Shown here piece by piece: positions 3,807 to 50,257 of a stretch of DNA of 64,000 nucleotides. The stretch lies in the UHGV virus genome UHGV-0076293; one strand, written 5' to 3'. The translations under genes and the position numbers were made by a program. Under the pieces are notes generated by a model. That model saw only the letters and a program-made list of their open reading frames with translations, was not told the origin of the DNA and ran no database searches. This DNA is from a virus. The stretch's first letter is position 1; each line of letters starts with the position of its first letter.

Positions 3807-5157
3807 TAAGCCGTCAACATTTGAACCCGTAGACCGGCCTATCCCCGAATTAAATAAACCACAGGACGGTGTAAAAGAAACCACCAATATCGTTACGCAA
3901 CCCACACGTACAACTGTTACTGATTTAGACCGTATTCCAAAGCAATACCTAATGAAGTATCTGGAAGGGTCAGCGTGGACGGTGGACTTCTTTAACTTCC
4001 TGAAAGGAAGAAACGACGCCAAGAAGTTTTTCGATTCGAAAGTGCTTACACCTGACCAACAGGTGGAGAAAATCATCGGGTTGGAGCTGCGTGTAACGAC
4101 ACCGCTCGACCGTAGCCAAGACACCACGAACAAAACGTTCAGCATGTCAGGCGCTGCAACAATTGCAAACTCGATTATCCCTAACGAGGGTTGCTTTTTC
4201 ATCGCCCCTATCGGTGACGGTCGTTTCGCGTTGTTTAACGTTACCAACGTTGTGCGTATGTCGAATAACAAAGTCGCGACGTACAACATTGAATACACGT
4301 TACTTTTCGAAGTTGACCCAGAAACCGCAGAAACGATTCGTCGTTGTACCGTACGTGAATACTACTACGTTGCAGAGCGTGCCTGGACAGGTGGTGATAC
4401 ACTTCTCACACCGAAAGAGTACCGTGCGTTCCTGGAAGTCGTTGACGCGATTGAAGACATTGAACAGACGTATGTAAAACGTTTCTACGACGGTGAAACG
4501 GCCACGTTGTTGTTCCCACACGATCGTCACAGCGACGGTTTGCGTAGCCGTGCTTACTACGACGTGTTCTTAGCGCTGTTTGTGCGCGCGGTGGGGTTAC
4601 GTACCGTAGGTAAGGATATTCAGATTTATCCGCACCCACCGATGAACGTGGAAGACATTGAAACGGTGTGGACAGCGCTGCTGCAACAGTCGCCAACGTT
4701 CTTAGCAGATTACAAACGTGACAGCACGGTGTGGCAAACGAAAACTTTCCGTACGATGCAACATCGTAACTCGGTAACGTGGTCGTTGATCTCTGATACC
4801 CGGTTCTTTACGGAAGAGTTAAAGCCAGGTTACGGGATGGCGCAACGTTTCCCCGGTCAGTGGCCAGAATGGAAACCGTTTGAGCCGGTTGAAGTTGAAA
4901 ACTATCGTGGGAACGAAGGGGAGTCTATTCCGGCCTTCCTACCGCTGTCCTTTAAACCGTATTTGCTGAGCGAGACGTTCTACGACGGTTCTTACAGTTC
5001 GTTGTTGGAATACGGCTTGTACTTGTACCTGCATAAACGTTCGCTACCGTCGGTAATTGCGTTAAAACTGTTTGAGGAAGTTTATAAGCTCCCGAAAGAC
5101 GCACAGTTCTATTACATTCCGATGGTGTATCTGCTTTTAAGATATTCGAGGGATTAA
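3787..5157 (+). CDS. hypothetical protein (456 aa)
   Basis: GAGGGA RBS; start overlaps upstream gene by 20 nt. Confidence 0.75.
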   Translation: MLKAKRDKPSTFEPVDRPIPELNKPQDGVKETTNIVTQPTRTTVTDLDRIPKQYLMKYLEGSAWTVDFFNFLKGRNDAKKFFDSKVLTPDQQVEKIIGLELRVTTPLDRSQDTTNKTFSMSGAATIANSIIPNEGCFFIAPIGDGRFALFNVTNVVRMSNNKVATYNIEYTLLFEVDPETAETIRRCTVREYYYVAERAWTGGDTLLTPKEYRAFLEVVDAIEDIEQTYVKRFYDGETATLLFPHDRHSDGLRSRAYYDVFLALFVRAVGLRTVGKDIQIYPHPPMNVEDIETVWTALLQQSPTFLADYKRDSTVWQTKTFRTMQHRNSVTWSLISDTRFFTEELKPGYGMAQRFPGQWPEWKPFEPVEVENYRGNEGESIPAFLPLSFKPYLLSETFYDGSYSSLLEYGLYLYLHKRSLPSVIALKLFEEVYKLPKDAQFYYIPMVYLLLRYSRD

Positions 5158-5158
5158 T

Positions 5159-5698
5159 GTGTCAGTGAAACGTAGTGCAGCATTTATGCTGTTCCATAAG
5201 TGGGTAGCATGGCGGGTTCCTGAATGGACAACCATCACCCAGTATATGTCGCAAGAACACGGATTGTTCTTGCCGGATGACGAAAAGAAAGCACGAGCGA
5301 TTTTGTTGAATAAGAAAACGGTCTATATGCGGCCATTTGAAGTGGCGGTGTATGCAGAGACCGGTGCTGCGTTAGATGTTCACGATCCGAATGACGGTAT
5401 TATCGTTTACGGATATATCATGGAACACCTAGCAGATTGGTTACATTACATGCAAGAGCCTCATCTGACGACGCGTAAAGTGCCGATAGAAGGACTCCGT
5501 CAGTTCAACGCCTTAGCATGTAAACTCTTTCCCGTTGCTAACCGATACGGTTATTTTAAGAAACCGGAAGTGACGATGGCGACGTCGGTACAAGCGTTAT
5601 TTGGAGAGGTGCGTTTAGAAACGCAGCAACACCGTTTTAACGATACGATAATGCGACGTATAGAAGCGATTTATCGTAAAAGGGGAGGTATACTGTAA
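5159..5698 (+). CDS. hypothetical protein (179 aa)
   Basis: GTG start 2 nt after upstream stop, GAGGG RBS. Confidence 0.7.
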   Translation: MSVKRSAAFMLFHKWVAWRVPEWTTITQYMSQEHGLFLPDDEKKARAILLNKKTVYMRPFEVAVYAETGAALDVHDPNDGIIVYGYIMEHLADWLHYMQEPHLTTRKVPIEGLRQFNALACKLFPVANRYGYFKKPEVTMATSVQALFGEVRLETQQHRFNDTIMRRIEAIYRKRGGIL

Positions 5699-27467: not shown

Positions 27468-28154
27468 ATGAAGGAATTGCAATTAAGAAAGCGTACTACT
27501 CTTATCCCCCTTAAGGAACTAAAACAGTGTCCCGTTTTCTACTCACCGAAAGATCACCTAGATTTATCTAAAGAGAAAAAGATTATTATTTCTGCCTTCC
27601 GAGAAGTAATCAATCTTCGTTATTTCGCGGCACCAATGGATTGTGCTATCGAACATGCTATGTTGGATGGAAGAACGTCGCTTACAGTTTACGATTTGTT
27701 AGAAGAAAAGAATATCGGTATTGAAACTGGTATACTGAGAGTAAACAAAAATGAGTTATTAGAAAGTCAAAAACAACTAATGACAGGTGTTCAATTACTC
27801 TTAGAGCAATATGGCTTCTATTCGGAAAAACCAACTTCTGCGGTATCTACGCAACCCATCATCTGTGACCATGGGTTTGAGGTAGAATGGAAAACAATTC
27901 GAGGGCAAGATTTTATTTTAATACATTGGTTCGTTCCCTATCTTTGGAAAGAGCGTACCACAGTTTATGCTTTACTTGAATTCGCTGTCTACTGGAGCAT
28001 TTATAAAAAAGAACGTGCTACTGCAATGAAAACGGTAATGACCACGCCGTTAAATCAACTTTTTACCTCTGGGTTAGAAACAGATTTTAACGAACTATGT
28101 ACAACTATTTTCAAGATGGAGTATGGCTATGCACCAGTTGGATATAACCGCTGA
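27468..28154 (+). CDS. hypothetical protein (228 aa)
   Basis: GAGGAG RBS. Confidence 0.7.
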   Translation: MKELQLRKRTTLIPLKELKQCPVFYSPKDHLDLSKEKKIIISAFREVINLRYFAAPMDCAIEHAMLDGRTSLTVYDLLEEKNIGIETGILRVNKNELLESQKQLMTGVQLLLEQYGFYSEKPTSAVSTQPIICDHGFEVEWKTIRGQDFILIHWFVPYLWKERTTVYALLEFAVYWSIYKKERATAMKTVMTTPLNQLFTSGLETDFNELCTTIFKMEYGYAPVGYNR

Positions 28155-28605
28155 TAAAATCTCCGCTAAATTTCCACAATTACGTGAATACATCAACGAC
28201 TTAAATTCAATTCGGGAAACACCGGTTAGAATTACGTTAGCAGTTGAAGATGATATTACTCACGGTATTGCGATCTGGGAGCCGGGTAATCTTATTTATC
28301 TGGTGGTGGCGGAAGGTTCTCGACGTTTCGGTGTTGGTTCGTTTTTATTGCAATACGTTCAATTGAATTCCGATCGTCAAATGGTGACGTGCCGTGTCCA
28401 CCCTTCGAACATTGACGGCCTGTGTTTCTTTTCGAAAAAGGGCTACCAGATTGACCGTTGGTATATCGCCAGCGACTCTCGTCGGTATTTTCGTATGACG
28501 AACGGTAACGTTGTTTCGTCATACGCCCCGCCGGAAGAAGGATATTTGGTGGATTTTATCGAAAACACGCCCATCTTTCTCTCTGTTGCGGATAAAATTT
28601 ATTAA
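28123..28605 (+). CDS. GNAT-fold acetyltransferase-like protein
   Basis: acetyl-CoA binding motif-like RRFGVGSFLL; start may be the in-frame ATG at 28129. Confidence 0.5.
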   Translation: MAMHQLDITADKISAKFPQLREYINDLNSIRETPVRITLAVEDDITHGIAIWEPGNLIYLVVAEGSRRFGVGSFLLQYVQLNSDRQMVTCRVHPSNIDGLCFFSKKGYQIDRWYIASDSRRYFRMTNGNVVSSYAPPEEGYLVDFIENTPIFLSVADKIY

Positions 28606-30161: not shown

Positions 30162-30205
30162 GTAGAGAGAGCTTTCGGGCTCTCTCTACTTTTCTTTTTT
30201 TTTTC
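30162..30205 (+). terminator. intrinsic terminator
   Basis: GTAGAGAGAGC-TTTCG-GGCTCTCTCTAC followed by T10. Confidence 0.85.
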
Positions 30206-30233
30206 ATTATCGACGGTCTTTATGGAGGTGACT

Positions 30234-30788
30234 ATGAAAGAATATAGAATTGCGATCATCGGGTCTCGAGAAACACCGGAAGACGTTATGCAGGAAATGT
30301 TAGAAACGTTACGGGAAGGGTTTCGAATCTTACGAAAGAAAGGCTACACGATTACCACCCGTTCTGGAGGGTGTTATAAAGGCCCAGACCAACTTCAGTT
30401 TATGATAGCACGTACCGAGGACGTTAAGAGCGTTTGTTATCTGCCGGATGAAAAGAAAATGTGGTTAGGGAAAATACACCCTAAGGTAGAGTTTCGTTAT
30501 ATCCCACAAGACGTTCAGTATCGTGCAGTTGTTGCTTCACTCCACCCAAACCCAGATAAGCTCTCACCGATTGCCTGGGCGTTACACGGTCGTAATCTGA
30601 ACATCATCGCAGGTGACCGCTTAGACGAACCGGTAGACGCAGTATATTACTTTAGCGACCACGACAAACACGGAAACGCAAAGGGTGGTACTGCGATGGG
30701 TGTAAAATACGCGAAGTCAATCGACGTTCCTTGTTACTATCATACCGCCGATCGAGATAAGTGGTTGGAAAGTCTTCGTTTATTATGA
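30234..30788 (+). CDS. Rossmann-fold SLOG-like (DprA/LOG-like) protein
   Basis: N-terminal YRIAIIGSRE followed by a Gly-rich segment resembles DprA/Smf and LOG-family nucleotide-binding folds; GGAGGT RBS. Confidence 0.4.
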   Translation: MKEYRIAIIGSRETPEDVMQEMLETLREGFRILRKKGYTITTRSGGCYKGPDQLQFMIARTEDVKSVCYLPDEKKMWLGKIHPKVEFRYIPQDVQYRAVVASLHPNPDKLSPIAWALHGRNLNIIAGDRLDEPVDAVYYFSDHDKHGNAKGGTAMGVKYAKSIDVPCYYHTADRDKWLESLRLL

Positions 30789-30911
30789 ACTTGACTTTAA
30801 CCGCGTAGTTGAGTTCAGCGATTCACCGTGTGATGGGAACAGAAGTTACTGCGTATCCGTTAGCAGGGTGAACTGGGTAAAAGTAAGATCAAAGCAAACG
30901 AGTAAATTATC

Positions 30912-32045
30912 ATGTCAACGTTAGATAGCGACTTAGAAGTGCTTTGTGACGATTACGACCGACTCGTAGCGTTAGAATCCATTGGAGTAAAAGACAATTA
31001 TCCGGCTATCGTTGCTATCCGTAAACGTTGGCTTTTGGATGATGTGGTTGTTGCGTCAGAGTCTGCGGCCATGATGCATCGTGCGCAGTTTTTGTCAGAC
31101 ACGGAACCTGATAAAGGGATTGGCAAAGCGGCGGCGCGACTCACCGGTCGTGCGGTTCGTGGCGTAAGTCGGGTAGCAGGACGTGCTGCCAGTGCAGGTG
31201 CAAAAGCATCAGCGAACTTTGCAGGTAAACATTCCAAACAACTTGCTTTACGTTTTGTGGATTTTGCTGAGGCTGCCGGTAAAGAAGTCATTAAGGAATT
31301 AAAAGAAGCGACGTCTAAAACGACGACCTTAGAACGCAAACTGCAAAAGTTAACCGCACGTCTAAGTTTAATCGGTGACAAAGACACTTTAAAACCGGTT
31401 GACTGCGACACGGGAAGTTGGACGACCAAAGTCTGTTTAGAAGACAAACCTAACGTAAAAGCATGTATTGAGTTCAGTAAGAACCTGAACGCAATGGATG
31501 CGATGGTCAACGAGTATACCGTTAAAACACGCACCATTATCGGTAAGAGCAAGAAAGTTACCGAGAGTGGTTTGGAGAAAGTAGGCCGGTCAACGAACTG
31601 GGCGATTAAACGTAGCGCAGGATTGTTCGGTATTATTGATCCGTTTAAAACGGTGAAAGCATATCCGTGGCCAGGTAACGTGGTGGTCGTTGAACACGAC
31701 AGCGGTAAGATTGAGTGGGCGATTGCCCGTGATGGTGATTTTGGCCACACAATCAAATCGCTGAACTTACACGAAATCGGTTCAGCACTCGATGCCGTTA
31801 GAAACATTATCCGTGCTTTACGTCAGCGTGGTACGAAACGACGTAGCGTTGGTTATACCGGTATTTACGATGAAATTCAGCGAATGAAAAAAGAACTGAA
31901 ATCGTTAGACGGTCGTGAGTTACGTGACGCTACCGTTCGGTATAAGAACGCACTGCGTTTAGAAGATGCGTTTACTACCTCGTTAGTGCGTGTTGCGGAA
32001 GGCTTACTGGAATGGTGCAGGTTGTCGCTGATTGAGGTTAAATAA
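30912..32045 (+). CDS. hypothetical protein (377 aa)
   Basis: long ORF with Ala/Arg-rich N-terminal region; the antisense 269-aa ORF inside it is rejected. Confidence 0.7.
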   Translation: MSTLDSDLEVLCDDYDRLVALESIGVKDNYPAIVAIRKRWLLDDVVVASESAAMMHRAQFLSDTEPDKGIGKAAARLTGRAVRGVSRVAGRAASAGAKASANFAGKHSKQLALRFVDFAEAAGKEVIKELKEATSKTTTLERKLQKLTARLSLIGDKDTLKPVDCDTGSWTTKVCLEDKPNVKACIEFSKNLNAMDAMVNEYTVKTRTIIGKSKKVTESGLEKVGRSTNWAIKRSAGLFGIIDPFKTVKAYPWPGNVVVVEHDSGKIEWAIARDGDFGHTIKSLNLHEIGSALDAVRNIIRALRQRGTKRRSVGYTGIYDEIQRMKKELKSLDGRELRDATVRYKNALRLEDAFTTSLVRVAEGLLEWCRLSLIEVK

Positions 32046-32512
32046 TGCGTATCACTATTATTCTCAAACCCGACAGTAAATACGGAAAGTTATACGGCGA
32101 CCAGGTACTCAAACTGCACAACATGCTGTTCGCAGAAGAGAAAGTGCGTATTAGTCAGTTAACCGGCCGTGACACGTTCAACCCCATCGAACGTTTAGAA
32201 GAGATTTGGCCTCAAGATTATCTCTGTGCGTGTGCGGTAGGTGACAACGAACAGCTTCTGGGATTTATGACGTTCTCATTGGGTTCTTGCTCAAAAGACA
32301 CGTTTGTTTACATCGGGAATTACTATGTGATTCCTGAAGCACGTTCTCAAGGGGTAGGGCGTGCGCTTATGGACAAAGTCCGTGAATACGGAAAGTCCAA
32401 AGGTTGTGGTTGGATGAGTCTGGATGTGTTAGACAACAACGTTAAAGCTATCTCCTTGTATGAGAAAATGGGATTCCGTACCGAATGCAGGGAAATGATA
32501 AAGGAAATCTAA
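32045..32512 (+). CDS. GNAT family N-acetyltransferase
   Basis: motif A-like RSQGVGRALMDKV and C-terminal LYEKMGF. Confidence 0.7.
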   Translation: MRITIILKPDSKYGKLYGDQVLKLHNMLFAEEKVRISQLTGRDTFNPIERLEEIWPQDYLCACAVGDNEQLLGFMTFSLGSCSKDTFVYIGNYYVIPEARSQGVGRALMDKVREYGKSKGCGWMSLDVLDNNVKAISLYEKMGFRTECREMIKEI

Positions 32513-44078: not shown

Positions 44079-44272
44079 AAATTTGGTTGCCGATTGTAGT
44101 TTTTATCCTTATCGCAGGGGCACTAGCGAACGCCGAGTACGAGAGTCGTGTTTTAGAAACGAAACGCATGTTGTATCTGAATTGTATAAAGGATTATACA
44201 CCAGGCACAGAGCTTCATGCACAGGCTGTAAAAAGCTGTGCATTGATGGCTGAATCACAGACTCGCTCCTAA
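44075..44272 (+). CDS. small single-pass membrane protein (65 aa)
   Basis: N-terminal TM helix IWLPIVVFILIAGALA, ESR motif and two Cys; ATGA overlap. Confidence 0.55.
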   Translation: MKIWLPIVVFILIAGALANAEYESRVLETKRMLYLNCIKDYTPGTELHAQAVKSCALMAESQTRS

Positions 44273-44646
44273 TGCGTATCTGGACGCTACAACTTGCTAA
44301 GTGGCGGTTAGCTAAGCAGAAAGGATTTCACGCAGTGGATATTACTGTGAAGTCAGGGCGAAAGGAACTCGCCCCCGACTGGGATTTCCTAATGGCGTAT
44401 AAAGTTTCTGCCCAGGACGCTACCGCTGAACGTGAGTACACGATAAAGTATTTGTACAAACTCGAACAACTGTTAGATACTGATGCCGAAGTTTTAGTGT
44501 CGTTACTCAGGCACGATGACTTGGTTTTGATGTGTTATTGTCCCGCAGGTAAGTTTTGTCATCGTTACTTACTGGCGAACAAACTTCAAGAAGTAGGAAT
44601 GATATTCGGTATCGACGTTGAGTTATGTGGAGAATTAACCGAATGA
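44272..44646 (+). CDS. hypothetical protein with Cys-x-Cys...CHR motif (DUF488-like)
   Basis: C-terminal LMCYCPAGKFCHRYLLA resembles the conserved CHR signature of the DUF488 family; assignment from memory of the family signature. Confidence 0.35.
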   Translation: MRIWTLQLAKWRLAKQKGFHAVDITVKSGRKELAPDWDFLMAYKVSAQDATAEREYTIKYLYKLEQLLDTDAEVLVSLLRHDDLVLMCYCPAGKFCHRYLLANKLQEVGMIFGIDVELCGELTE

Positions 44647-45940: not shown

Positions 45941-48900
45941 ATGGCTAAAGCGGTAAAGAAAATTCGTTTACACGATTTACGTCCATACACCGGTGATATC
46001 GGTGAAGGCGTTTTACTTTTCTCCAAGGATGAGAAAGATTATAAGTTACCAGTCCGTGAGGTTATTGCAGATATTGACACCGTACGTAATGCGGTGGCTG
46101 ATGCACAAACAGCAGCAGCACAATCACAAGAAGCTGCAACTCAGGCTACGCAAGCAAAAGTTTTAGCAGAAGCAGCAAAACAACAAACTGACACAGTTGC
46201 GGCAACGGTTGCACAACAAGCGCAAACCGTAACCGAAAAAGCAACAGAAGTCAGTACAAAACACACCGAAGTGTTAGCCGCGAAAACGGCGGTAGACGCT
46301 CAGGCTGTGTCCATTAATGAGAAAGCACAAGCGGTAGCGACAAGTGAGGCAAACGTCACACAAGCAGAAACTACCGTTACGAAGAAAGCAGAAACTGTTG
46401 CCACACAAGCCGGGCGGGTCGAACAGTCACTTACGGCAGTTAACGAAGCTGTTGCGTCGGTAGAGTCGTCGAAAGCTGCCGTAGAAGCTAAAGCAACACA
46501 AGTTACTTCAGACAAAGAAACCGCAGAGAATGCGGCAACTCGTTCTGAGGCAGCCGCTAAGCGTGCGGAAGAAATCGTTGCTCAAGGTACTGTTGATGCA
46601 ACAACGACCAGTAAAGGTGTCGTTAAACTTAATAATACCTTAACCAGTGACTCTGTTACTGAAGCGGCTACACCGTCAACGGTTAAGCAGTTAAATGATG
46701 AATTGCAGTTAAAAGCAAACCGTCACAACCCAACTTTTACCGGTGTGGTAAAAGCACCGACTCCTGCTTCGGATTCTAACGACACGAGCGTCTCAACGAC
46801 TGCATGGGTACGGCAAGCGATTGCTGAATTAGTGGACTCTTCACCCGAGACGTTAGATACGTTATCAGAAATTGCAGCCGCGTTAGGAAACGATCCTAAC
46901 TTTGCGACAACGATAACGAACCAACTAGCGGGTAAACAGCCGTTAAGTCCGTTACTGACAGCGATTGCCGCAGTCACCACCGCTGCAAACAAACTCCCTT
47001 ACTTTACCGGTAGTAATCAGGTAGGGTTAGCGGATTTCACCTCGACTGCTCGCGAATTATTAGCGAAAGGGTCGACGGCCGATATCATCAGCTTCCTGGG
47101 GTTGAAAACCACCGTTGATAAAGCTGCGGGCGCTATGCAACGTAGTTCTAACGGTGCCGATATTCCCGATAAAGCCACCTTCGCGAAGAACATCGGGTTG
47201 TCAGCAGAGACGTACCTGAAGTTTAATGGGGAGATGCCAGTAGATGCAGACATCAACACCTTCGGCCCGGTTGAAGCGTTTATGGGCGTTTGGTCTAAAG
47301 CCACGTCTACGAACGCAACAGTTGCAAAGAATTTTCCAGAAGAAAACGCAGTTGGTTGTTTAGAAGTTTTCAAAGCGGGTAACTACAGCGGAAGTCAACG
47401 TTTTACTGTACGTAACGGTAACATCTATACACGTCATCTTACTGCTGCATGGAATGGGACAAACGGTCCTTGGTCAGAATGGCGTAATGTTGCTGGTTCC
47501 GCCAGAACGTTGAACGAACAAAATAATCTGAATGACTTGGGTGGTGAGGCCGCACTAGGTGTTTGGAGAAACAGTTCGAGTACATTAGCAACAACCGCGC
47601 TGAATTATCCTGAAGAAGGCTCTTTTGCCCAGGGCGTATTAGAAGTTCTCAAAGGTGGCAACTATAGTTACACACAACGCTACACTACCCGCAGAGGCAA
47701 TGTATACGTTCGTTGTCTACAAGCCACGTGGGACGCTTCAAACCCGCAATGGGAAGAATGGCGCTGTGTTGGTCATCAATCTGTCAGCACATATTTCGAA
47801 GGCGATCTCGACACGTTAACTTCGCCTAACCGTTATAGCATTACTGATAAAGCGACAAACGTTCCTTTAATCGACGGTACTAAAATTATCGGTATCTTGG
47901 ACGTCAGTCGTCGTTTTGATAACATTAGTGTCGAACAAAAATTCACCTCGTTTGGTTCTGGGAGCAAAACTACAGGGCGTATTTTCACACGTGTATTCTC
48001 CGGTCAATCAAACGGTAAATGGAGTGAGTGGCGAGAGGTTTTCACCTCGTATTCACTTCCGTTAGTTTTAGGTATCGGTGGGGTTGCAGCTAAGGTTGAC
48101 CCGTTAGACTGGCAAACCTACGACTTCGTTCCTGGACAGATGTTAACGACGCCGTTGAACACCATGAAAAACATTCCTGCAGGAATGGATTGGGGTACTA
48201 TTGACGGTAACTTAGTTAACATCCTTGTAGGGCCGTCTGACGACACCGGTACTGGTCGGAGTATGCTGGTTTGGCGTAGCACAGTGTCTGTTGCTAACTA
48301 TCGCTTCTTTGCGGTACGTATCGCTGGTGAGAAGGGTAGTCGTACGATTACGCCGCGTCAGATGCCTGTGTTGAACGCAGCGCACACCTGGGCAGAGAAA
48401 CAAACGTTCTCTAAAGGTTTAGCGGGTGAATTAACCGGTAATGCTTCTTCAGCAACGAAACTTCAAACAGCCCGTTTAATCGGCGGCGTAAGTTTCGACG
48501 GCACCAAGGACATTGCACTCCCTGGCGTTAACGCACAAGGTACGCAGAACACCACTGGGAATGCGGCTACCGCAACCAAATTACAAACGGCTAGAAATAT
48601 CAACGGTGTGAAATTCGATGGCTCTGGAGACATCAATATCAACACCTTAGTAGGTCGTGGACGTGTCACTGCTCTGGCTGGATCAAACAAAGGTACACCT
48701 GGTATCCAGATGTACGAGGTTTACAATAACGGTTATCCGACCGCGTATGGTAATTTACTGCATTTAGGTGGTGCTACTGCCGTAGGTGAAGGTGAACTAC
48801 TGATCGGTTGGTCTGGTACCAGTGGCGCACACGCACCTGTTTATATCCGTAGTCGTCGAGACACTACAGATGCGCCGTGGTCAGAATGGGCGCAAGTTTA

Positions 48901-50257
48901 TACTGCACGAGACAGCATTCCGGGTGTCAACACCACAGGTAATCAGGATACGACCGGAAACGCAGCTACCGCTACAAAACTTAAAACCACACGTAAAATA
49001 GGCGGGGTTAATTTTGACGGAACGGGTGATATTAACCTACCAGGTGTAAACCAGCAGGGCAACCAGAACACAACAGGTAACGCTGCGACAGCGACTAAAC
49101 TCCAGACTGCCCGAAATATTGGTGGTGTGGCTTTCGATGGTACTAAAGACATCAGTTTACCTGGGGTAAACCAAACAGGGAATCAGTCAACTACGGGGAA
49201 CGCTGCTACTGCAACGAAGTTGCAGACAGCAAGAAGTATCAACAACGTACCATTCGATGGTTCGAAAGATATTACTCTAACGCCAAGTAATATCGGTGCG
49301 GCTGCCTCCTCAATGACTTGGTTAAATACCGGGGATAATGGTGCAGCGCTTAGTACAGATTCTTTTATTACTTTGTTGCAAAATAACGGGGCTTTTAATT
49401 CCAGAACTTGGATAGCCCGATGCTCTTGGGCGTATGCTCAAAATGGCGTGATTCCAGATAGTGAAACAAAGTGCGGTACTATTCCACTTGCAGGCTCAGT
49501 TATTGAAGTTGTAAGTTTTGGGATGACCAACTACACCATTCGTATCACAACCCCTACGACGACATCGGTTAGCGGAGCAAAAACCAACTCTGAGTTTATT
49601 TATTGCTATAATGGTAAAGATTATTCTCCAGGTTGGCGACGGCAGTATAACACTGTTAATAAACCGTCTGCTAGTGACGTTGGCGCTCTACCAACTGGTG
49701 GCGGTACTGTCAGTGGCGATTTGACGGTTAATGGTAAACTGGTTACGAAAAATGCCGATTTTCGAATTGCTTACGGTAGTTACGGTTTCATTTTACGTAA
49801 CGATGGCAATAGCACCTATTTCTTAGTAACAGCATCTGGTCAAGCTGCAACGGGTTCCTGGAACAACTTACGACCGATGTACTTTAGCAATTCTACCGGT
49901 CAAGTAACCTTCGGACACAACATTACCGGTAACGGCAACGGTTCGTTTAACGACGTACAGATTCGTTCTGACCGTCGTAACAAACGTAATCTGGTGAAAC
50001 TGGATAATGCATTAGACCGTTTAGAACTCCTTACCGGGTATCTGTACGAAGTTCAACATCCTGACGATGGATGGAATACTTCGGTAGGCTTAATTGCCCA
50101 GGATGCATTAGTTGCGTTACCTGAATTGGTTACTGAAGACGATGACGCTATTTCTGGTGAAAAACGTTTACGTTTGAACTATAATGGTGTTATTGCGTTG
50201 TTGGTAGAGGGTATTAAAGACCTTCGTCGTGAGCTTAAGGAACTCAAGGGGAAATAA
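45941..50257 (+). CDS. long tail fibre, T5 pb1-like (1438 aa)
   Basis: Ala/Gln/Thr-rich coiled-coil N-terminal region; five tandem GNAATATKLQTARNIGGVxFDGTKDI repeats (phage tail-fibre repeat class); C-terminal peptidase S74-type intramolecular chaperone with SDRRNK Ser-Lys motif. Confidence 0.85.
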   Translation: MAKAVKKIRLHDLRPYTGDIGEGVLLFSKDEKDYKLPVREVIADIDTVRNAVADAQTAAAQSQEAATQATQAKVLAEAAKQQTDTVAATVAQQAQTVTEKATEVSTKHTEVLAAKTAVDAQAVSINEKAQAVATSEANVTQAETTVTKKAETVATQAGRVEQSLTAVNEAVASVESSKAAVEAKATQVTSDKETAENAATRSEAAAKRAEEIVAQGTVDATTTSKGVVKLNNTLTSDSVTEAATPSTVKQLNDELQLKANRHNPTFTGVVKAPTPASDSNDTSVSTTAWVRQAIAELVDSSPETLDTLSEIAAALGNDPNFATTITNQLAGKQPLSPLLTAIAAVTTAANKLPYFTGSNQVGLADFTSTARELLAKGSTADIISFLGLKTTVDKAAGAMQRSSNGADIPDKATFAKNIGLSAETYLKFNGEMPVDADINTFGPVEAFMGVWSKATSTNATVAKNFPEENAVGCLEVFKAGNYSGSQRFTVRNGNIYTRHLTAAWNGTNGPWSEWRNVAGSARTLNEQNNLNDLGGEAALGVWRNSSSTLATTALNYPEEGSFAQGVLEVLKGGNYSYTQRYTTRRGNVYVRCLQATWDASNPQWEEWRCVGHQSVSTYFEGDLDTLTSPNRYSITDKATNVPLIDGTKIIGILDVSRRFDNISVEQKFTSFGSGSKTTGRIFTRVFSGQSNGKWSEWREVFTSYSLPLVLGIGGVAAKVDPLDWQTYDFVPGQMLTTPLNTMKNIPAGMDWGTIDGNLVNILVGPSDDTGTGRSMLVWRSTVSVANYRFFAVRIAGEKGSRTITPRQMPVLNAAHTWAEKQTFSKGLAGELTGNASSATKLQTARLIGGVSFDGTKDIALPGVNAQGTQNTTGNAATATKLQTARNINGVKFDGSGDININTLVGRGRVTALAGSNKGTPGIQMYEVYNNGYPTAYGNLLHLGGATAVGEGELLIGWSGTSGAHAPVYIRSRRDTTDAPWSEWAQVYTARDSIPGVNTTGNQDTTGNAATATKLKTTRKIGGVNFDGTGDINLPGVNQQGNQNTTGNAATATKLQTARNIGGVAFDGTKDISLPGVNQTGNQSTTGNAATATKLQTARSINNVPFDGSKDITLTPSNIGAAASSMTWLNTGDNGAALSTDSFITLLQNNGAFNSRTWIARCSWAYAQNGVIPDSETKCGTIPLAGSVIEVVSFGMTNYTIRITTPTTTSVSGAKTNSEFIYCYNGKDYSPGWRRQYNTVNKPSASDVGALPTGGGTVSGDLTVNGKLVTKNADFRIAYGSYGFILRNDGNSTYFLVTASGQAATGSWNNLRPMYFSNSTGQVTFGHNITGNGNGSFNDVQIRSDRRNKRNLVKLDNALDRLELLTGYLYEVQHPDDGWNTSVGLIAQDALVALPELVTEDDDAISGEKRLRLNYNGVIALLVEGIKDLRRELKELKGK
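48425..49295 (+). repeat. five tandem ~37-aa tail-fibre repeats inside the fibre gene
   Basis: repeated TGNAATATKLQTAR-x-IGGV-x-FDG-x-DI-x-LPGVNQ-x-GNQ units, recoded with synonymous codons between copies. Confidence 0.8.

Follow-up and report, generated by a model that had tools for sequence, protein, structure and literature searches.

Viral SLOG domains were surveyed by Iyer, Burroughs, Anantharaman and Aravind in 2022, who reported them in 31% of jumbo phages, described their fusion to Macro, NADAR and DUF4326 domains and predicted that they sense or cleave ADP-ribose derivatives, the domains themselves being experimentally uncharacterised (PMC9503650). The hallmark of the superfamily is a set of Gly-rich or polar loops following strands 1 and 2 which, together with a late GG(T/S)-type loop, form a nucleotide pocket (PMC9503650). 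Iyer et al. suggested in 2021 that a jumbo-phage copy of DprA serves as an extra ssDNA binder (PMC7824862). Two of the fusion partners have since been shown to act in phage countermeasures: NADARs strip ADP-ribose from DarT1-modified guanines in ssDNA (PMC11543638), and T4 gp30.3 (AdfN) defeats DarTG1 through NADAR activity (PMC11257639), while gp217 of Erwinia phage Asesino, a nucleus-forming chimallivirus, is a macrodomain (AdfM) that enters the phage nucleus and frees DNA of the ADP-ribose added by DarT2 (PMC13309987). Here we describe a protein of the kind treated in the 2022 survey, i.e. a stand-alone viral SLOG domain of the sort enriched in jumbo phages, encoded within a stretch of 64,000 nucleotides of a viral genome (the window) and referred to below as the SLOG protein.

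The SLOG gene and its upstream signals

The open reading frame originally predicted at 30234–30788 is present and represents a genuine gene. A chance reading frame is ruled out by a full-length match to PHROG 768 (E 1.7e-42; residues 1–175 against profile positions 1–173 of 191), by tblastn matches in 444 phage records (best E 1e-74) and by a metagenomic cluster that is 96% identical to the SLOG protein. The G/C content of the gene (0.44–0.45) is the same as that of its neighbours. The gene and the signals preceding it are as follows:

30162–30205, + strand: terminator-like hairpin of the intrinsic type, with a 12-bp GC-rich stem and a TTCG loop, followed by a T-run (terminator scan and RNA folding)
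30224–30228, + strand: GGAGG, Shine-Dalgarno-like, 5 nt 5′ of the ATG at 30234 (read directly from the sequence)
30234–30788, + strand: coding sequence of the single-domain SLOG (DprA-like) protein, 184 aa; the stop codon TGA lies within the range and ends at 30788

The hairpin folds with −20.6 kcal/mol (z −3.58), and none of 200 shuffled sequences was equally stable. It marks the end of the gene preceding the SLOG gene, so that the latter either begins a new unit or is reached via read-through. A second in-frame ATG at 30222 is an unlikely start, as homologs begin with MKxYK at the methionine of 30234 and the Shine-Dalgarno-like sequence fits this codon.

Family size and distribution

The SLOG protein is a divergent ortholog within a viral DprA-like family that is already annotated: PHROG 768 carries the name 'DprA-like DNA recombination-mediator protein', RefSeq names its members likewise, and the family includes Phi92 gp047, SPN3US gp92, Asesino gp108 and JSE EpJSE_00169. 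Asesino gp108 is the closest annotated relative (60% identity, E 1e-74). A profile of the family recovered 4,503 cluster representatives (50% identity) at E ≤ 1e-3, and at least 6,858 clusters at 90% identity. Orthologs were present in all 62 phage records matching at E ≤ 1e-30, which comprise SPN3US-like, Erskinevirus and Seoulvirus phages and their relatives, and in records starting at the usual genome position they lie at ~85–94 kb. Compared with the SPN3US-like orthologs, the SLOG protein is 55–60% identical and occupies the same genomic position, but it lacks the insert of ~15 residues (DQDTGKK...) that most of them carry. A megablast search with the locus gave no nucleotide-level match in the phage collection; the phage is thus only distantly related to known genomes. 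As to the SPN3US ortholog, gp92 (SPN3US_0092; 4995–5594 in record L006), the supplement of an amber-mutant resequencing study (2016) lists one mutagenised, viable stock with the nonsynonymous change P106L in gp92, a tolerated SNP.

Fold and conserved residues

Structure prediction, which had been proposed as a check, returned no different fold. In the AlphaFold2 model (built with 18 homologs; pLDDT 93.5, pTM 0.90) strands and helices alternate in a Rossmann-like domain; Foldseek supports this domain and gives DprA and ShosA as the closest solved relatives. Within the viral structure library BFVD the nearest models are those of phage 'Phi92_gp047 / DprA-like' proteins (TM 0.70–0.77), and viral SLOG models of the YspA/YAcAr type are clearly worse (TM 0.43–0.53). 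The modelled fold is a three-layer Rossmann-like α/β sandwich with a parallel central sheet, as in SLOG proteins, and the characteristic loops are in place: GSRxT, SGGxxGxD and GGT hardly vary, if at all, in the 99 diverse family members over which we counted column frequencies. Burroughs et al. 2015 reportedly used the same definition of the SLOG motifs. Together with HxRN, these loops surround the pocket in which other SLOG proteins hold a nucleotide or ssDNA. Both sequence elements that had first drawn attention to the protein, the N-terminal IAIIGSRE (residues 6–13) and a Gly-rich segment (SGGCYKGPD), are present and fall into the best-conserved columns of the family, with G10, G45, G50 and D52 found in 99/99 members. 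The conserved elements are:

30261–30275, + strand: motif 1 (GSRxT), G10-S11-R12-x-T14; G in 99/99, S in 96/99, R in 98/99 and T in 93/99 members
30363–30389, + strand: motif 2, S44-G45-G46-C-Y-K-G50-P-D52, after strand 2; G45, G50 and D52 each in 99/99
30543–30548, + strand: H104-P105, family-specific; H in 96/99 and P in 91/99, forming an HPxW motif in most members
30582–30596, + strand: motif 3 (HxRN), L117-H118-G119-R120-N121; R in 99/99, N in 98/99 and H in 95/99
30684–30707, + strand: motif 4, G151-G152-T153-A154 ... K158; G, G and T each in 99/99, R or K at position 158 in 61/99

For comparison with DprA we aligned the family profile by hhalign with a reference alignment of the Rossmann-fold domains of four solved DprA/ShosA proteins and E. 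coli Smf, which matched over 148 columns, about the whole domain (92.4% probability, E 5e-7); against the single sequence of E. coli Smf the match was weak. Motif 2 is the counterpart of SGxAxGID in DprA and was aligned to DprA chains in the profile search of the PDB, whereas motif 4 corresponds to the SGS...R of DprA. ssDNA is bound by the basic residues R52, R143 and R170 in H. pylori DprA and by R139, R234 and R261 in ShosA (PMC12961424). In the hhalign alignment R12 pairs with R52, R120-N121 with the RNR motif that contains R143, and K158 with R170, so that the basic triad holding ssDNA in DprA and ShosA appears to be retained as R12, R120 and K158 (conserved in 98/99, 99/99 and, as R or K, 61/99 members). 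Other residues set the family apart: T14, H104-P105 and H118 are near-invariant and are missing from DprA, H104-P105 having no equivalent conserved column among the five aligned DprA/ShosA sequences. The stretch leading from strand 3 to the RN motif is rebuilt relative to DprA and bears the HPxW motif.

Genomic neighbourhood

The gene had been assigned to an accessory region, and this assignment does not stand: 11 of the 12 genes between 26.8 and 34.0 kb are syntenic with Asesino gp102–gp114, being orthologous with the order kept (47–68% identity), and the ortholog itself occurs in each of the 62 records mentioned above. The sole difference from the Asesino region is the absence of the small gene gp109 from the window. 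Its place, which in SPN3US is taken by gp93 (both ~90 aa), corresponds to the spacer of 123 nt at 30789–30911, and no homolog of gp109/gp93 was detectable in the whole window (tblastn, best E 0.047).

Directly 3′ of the SLOG gene lies a homolog of the phiKZ-type internal head protein (30912–32045, + strand; PF12699 E 1.6e-7, PHROG 2497 E 4e-73). The two genes may be co-transcribed, as no terminator was found to separate them, and this opens the possibility that the SLOG protein is expressed late or packaged. A text search of two SPN3US virion-proteomics papers found no mention of gp92. Genes for GNAT-type acetyltransferases flank the block at 28123–28605 (+ strand, PHROG 7861) and 32045–32512 (+ strand, PHROG 3810), both of them conserved in Asesino (gp104, gp111) and SPN3US (gp88, gp95).

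Elsewhere in the window there is no SLOG paralog, and ad hoc HMMs found no NADAR or Macro gene in the 64 kb. The 124-aa protein encoded at 44272–44646 (+ strand) matches PF22751 (DUF488-N3a, 'Active DUF488-N3 subclade', E 1.2e-11) and PHROG 2450, and weakly an ad hoc HMM of DUF4326 (E 1e-3); since members of the SLOG family are repeatedly fused to DUF4326, the gene may form part of that family's functional network. Further downstream, a 1,438-aa protein (45941–50257, + strand) with repeated 'NTTGNAATATKLQTAR..GV.FDG..DI' units resembles a tail-fibre protein.

Around three distant members we found DNA methylases, dNK, RNase H, ligase, endonuclease I, RNA ligase and a Lar-like restriction-alleviation gene, with no recurrent neighbour across the three; the gene contexts in JSE and Hena1 were uninformative. 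On the metagenomic contig L010, which encodes the distant member P0033, a gene at 81–287 with a weak match to Lar_restr_allev (restriction alleviation) lies just upstream of, and slightly overlaps, the SLOG homolog at 280–837, and other distant homologs adjoin DNA methyltransferases and a GmrSD_N gene (L011); such neighbourhoods are of an early or anti-restriction style.

Fusions and the connection to ADP-ribose

We surveyed domain fusions among the best 150 of the 4,503 representatives by scanning the 30 that are longer than a single domain. NADAR was found in seven of these 30 and DUF4326 in seven, one protein also carrying a Macro domain; these were the only non-SLOG partner families detected among them, and no recombination or nuclease partner was seen. 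Fusions thus occur in ~14 of the 150 best representatives (about a tenth). Two proteins of ~1,480 aa combine SLOG, YAcAr, SLOG cluster 4 and NADAR. These fusions, recovered here independently, reproduce the published comparative genomics. The invariant residues are common to fused and stand-alone SLOG domains, which therefore probably share their biochemical activity.

The Macro domain of the SLOG-NADAR-Macro protein (P0133) is of the DarG type: its matches are PDB 5M3I (E 3.4e-24) and 5M31 (E 1.2e-23), both of which are DarG macrodomains (PMC5179494), and it is 33% identical to Asesino gp217, i.e. AdfM (E 6e-15). In Asesino, the closest annotated relative of the phage, whose genome we read for NAD/ADP-ribose genes at 1–50 kb and 176–196 kb, SLOG (gp108) and AdfM (gp217) are encoded by separate genes; elsewhere a single polypeptide unites the two domains. 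Both enzymatic partners, NADAR and the AdfM-type Macro domain, act on ADP-ribosylated ssDNA, and the nearest homologs of the SLOG domain bind ssDNA via residues that, judging from the alignment, it retains.

Relationship to DprA, LOG and other SLOG proteins

By sequence as well as structure the family is nearest to DprA, whereas most viral SLOGs were placed by Iyer et al. 2022 in a YpsA-like clade for which soluble ADP-ribose signals were favoured (PMC9503650). The similarity emerges with breadth of the query: single-sequence and narrow-profile searches gave no significant match to PDB sequences; chains of DprA were hit only with the 99-member profile (E 2e-4 to 7e-4), the matches being confined to the N-terminal 50 residues. 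Pfam domains found among the 99 members (E < 0.01) were DprA in 54, SLOG cluster 4 in 10 and YAcAr in 2, the best match of any family member to PF02481 (DprA/Smf) having an E value of 3.3e-8. The SLOG protein itself does not match PF02481 even at E ≤ 10, and it falls outside YAcAr (PF10686), the match to which scores 16.6 bits (gathering cut-off 28.2) and covers the C-terminal 31 residues only. It had no match in NCBIfam or PADLOC; weak matches to Pfam TyrRSs_C and to PHROG 289 ('GTP-binding') were discarded as noise. Relative to the bacterial DprA/Smf proteins (PF02481; PDB 3MAJ, 4LJK and 3UQZ) and the ShosA antitoxin (8ZVA), the SLOG protein consists of one 184-aa domain and is devoid of SAM and winged-helix domains. 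It also differs from the ThsA-type sensor of Thoeris, in which a SLOG domain binding gcADPR is coupled to an effector (SIR2), in having no attached effector domain.

DprA loads RecA on ssDNA during transformation. Given its proximity to DprA, the SLOG protein might be a DprA-type recombination mediator or ssDNA protector, binding phage ssDNA and loading host RecA or the UvsX-like protein of the phage, or shielding DNA that is incoming or replicating, without any link to ADP-ribose. The closest solved relatives, the hhalign match, the conserved basic triad and the RefSeq and PHROG naming all speak for such a role, as do the ssDNA-binding function suggested for jumbo-phage DprA copies (PMC7824862), the presence of a UvsX homolog in Asesino (gp238), the location of distant members among replication and repair genes and a pI of 8.6 (family median 8.4). 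We nevertheless regard it as rather unlikely. The protein is a single domain without the SAM and winged-helix parts, and it has no Pfam DprA match. M238, H260, Q264 and L269 of S. pneumoniae DprA (SpDprA) are residues that we take to mediate dimerisation and RecA contact; their roles were reportedly established by Quevillon-Cheruel 2012 and Lisboa 2014, two papers cited in PMC12961424. The letters of H260, Q264 and L269 match the PDB sequence, but the segment H260–L269 has no alignable counterpart, as the aligned region stops before it, and M238 aligns with K161. Moreover, a mediator role leaves the near-invariant, family-specific H104, P105 and H118 unexplained, and likewise the fact that the family is fused time and again to ADP-ribose hydrolase domains, with no recombination or nuclease partner detected among the 30 scanned representatives.

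The core had originally been likened to the LOG family as well as to DprA/Smf, and this reading of the fold is supported, with DprA as nearest relative. A LOG-like N-glycosidase that acts on free nucleotides instead of ADP-ribose or DNA, altering the nucleotide pool or setting free a modified base, is very unlikely: the LOG catalytic motif is PGGxGTxxE with a catalytic Glu, and the SLOG protein instead reads KGGTAMGVK, lacking both the GxGT spacing and the Glu. It has no match to PF03641 (LOG/PpnN), the family profile shows no significant similarity to E. coli PpnN (E 0.17, 17 columns), and the family is closer to DprA than to LOG by every measure used. That the protein mimics the ShosA antitoxin, replacing unstable host ShosA and neutralising ShosT as an anti-ShosTA factor, is extremely improbable, as ShosA also requires its SAM domain, dimerisation and RecA binding (PMC12961424), none of which is evident in the SLOG protein, PADLOC gave no match, and the family is far commoner than expected of a counter to one defence system.

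We therefore file the SLOG protein under the SLOG superfamily in a viral DprA-like clade, outside DprA, LOG and YAcAr proper, on account of the missing SAM and winged-helix domains, RecA segment and Pfam DprA match, its own near-invariant residues and the absent LOG motif.

Proposed function and significance

The reading that we prefer, tentatively and as something quite possible though short of probable, is that the SLOG protein is a nucleotide- or ssDNA-binding module in ADP-ribose counter-defence, whose ligand is likely ssDNA, probably ADP-ribosylated, and which may be catalytic via H104 and H118. We infer the whole of this scheme. The protein would bind a phosphate-bearing nucleotide moiety and would work in the same pathway as NADAR, the DarG/AdfM-type macrodomain and DUF4326, the link of the last to ADP-ribose being a prediction. 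In the preferred version it would recognise ssDNA, probably ADP-ribosylated by DarT-type toxins, and the modified DNA would then be handed to a glycohydrolase such as AdfM. Alternatively, the SLOG protein itself might cleave the base–ribose bond with the family-specific H104 and H118 as putative catalytic residues. In a close variant, favoured in the literature, it would bind or degrade soluble immune signals derived from ADP-ribose.

Several observations temper the counter-defence reading: the SLOG protein is stand-alone, with no NADAR or Macro gene found by the ad hoc HMMs in the 64 kb; only about one in ten of the best 150 representatives is a fusion protein; and the neighbourhoods of the three distant members are heterogeneous. 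In addition, plain binding of ssDNA would account for the conserved basic triad just as well.

The assignment of the fold adds nothing new, since RefSeq and PHROGs already have a name for the family and papers on comparative genomics have dealt with it. Beyond the literature there is one idea only, namely the link to DNA de-ADP-ribosylation through fusion to a DarG/AdfM-type macrodomain. In its strongest form, which we consider unlikely, viral DprA-like SLOGs would be a missing component of DNA de-ADP-ribosylation, either a reader of (ADP-ribosylated) ssDNA that acts with AdfM-type macrodomains and NADARs, or a third, histidine-dependent class of ADP-ribose–base glycohydrolases; in nucleus-forming jumbo phages these proteins would act within the phage nucleus against DarT-type toxins. 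The occurrence of NADAR and DarG/AdfM-type fusions together with DprA-like ssDNA-binding residues makes this a concrete and cheaply testable hypothesis, and it ties the family to the recently established phage countermeasures against DNA ADP-ribosylation (AdfN, AdfM). At least 4,503 representatives at 50% identity make this a very large family, and each matching SPN3US-like jumbo-phage record contains an ortholog. If true, the de-ADP-ribosylation reading would provide a function for a family that about one-third of jumbo phages carry and that accounts for thousands of metagenomic clusters.
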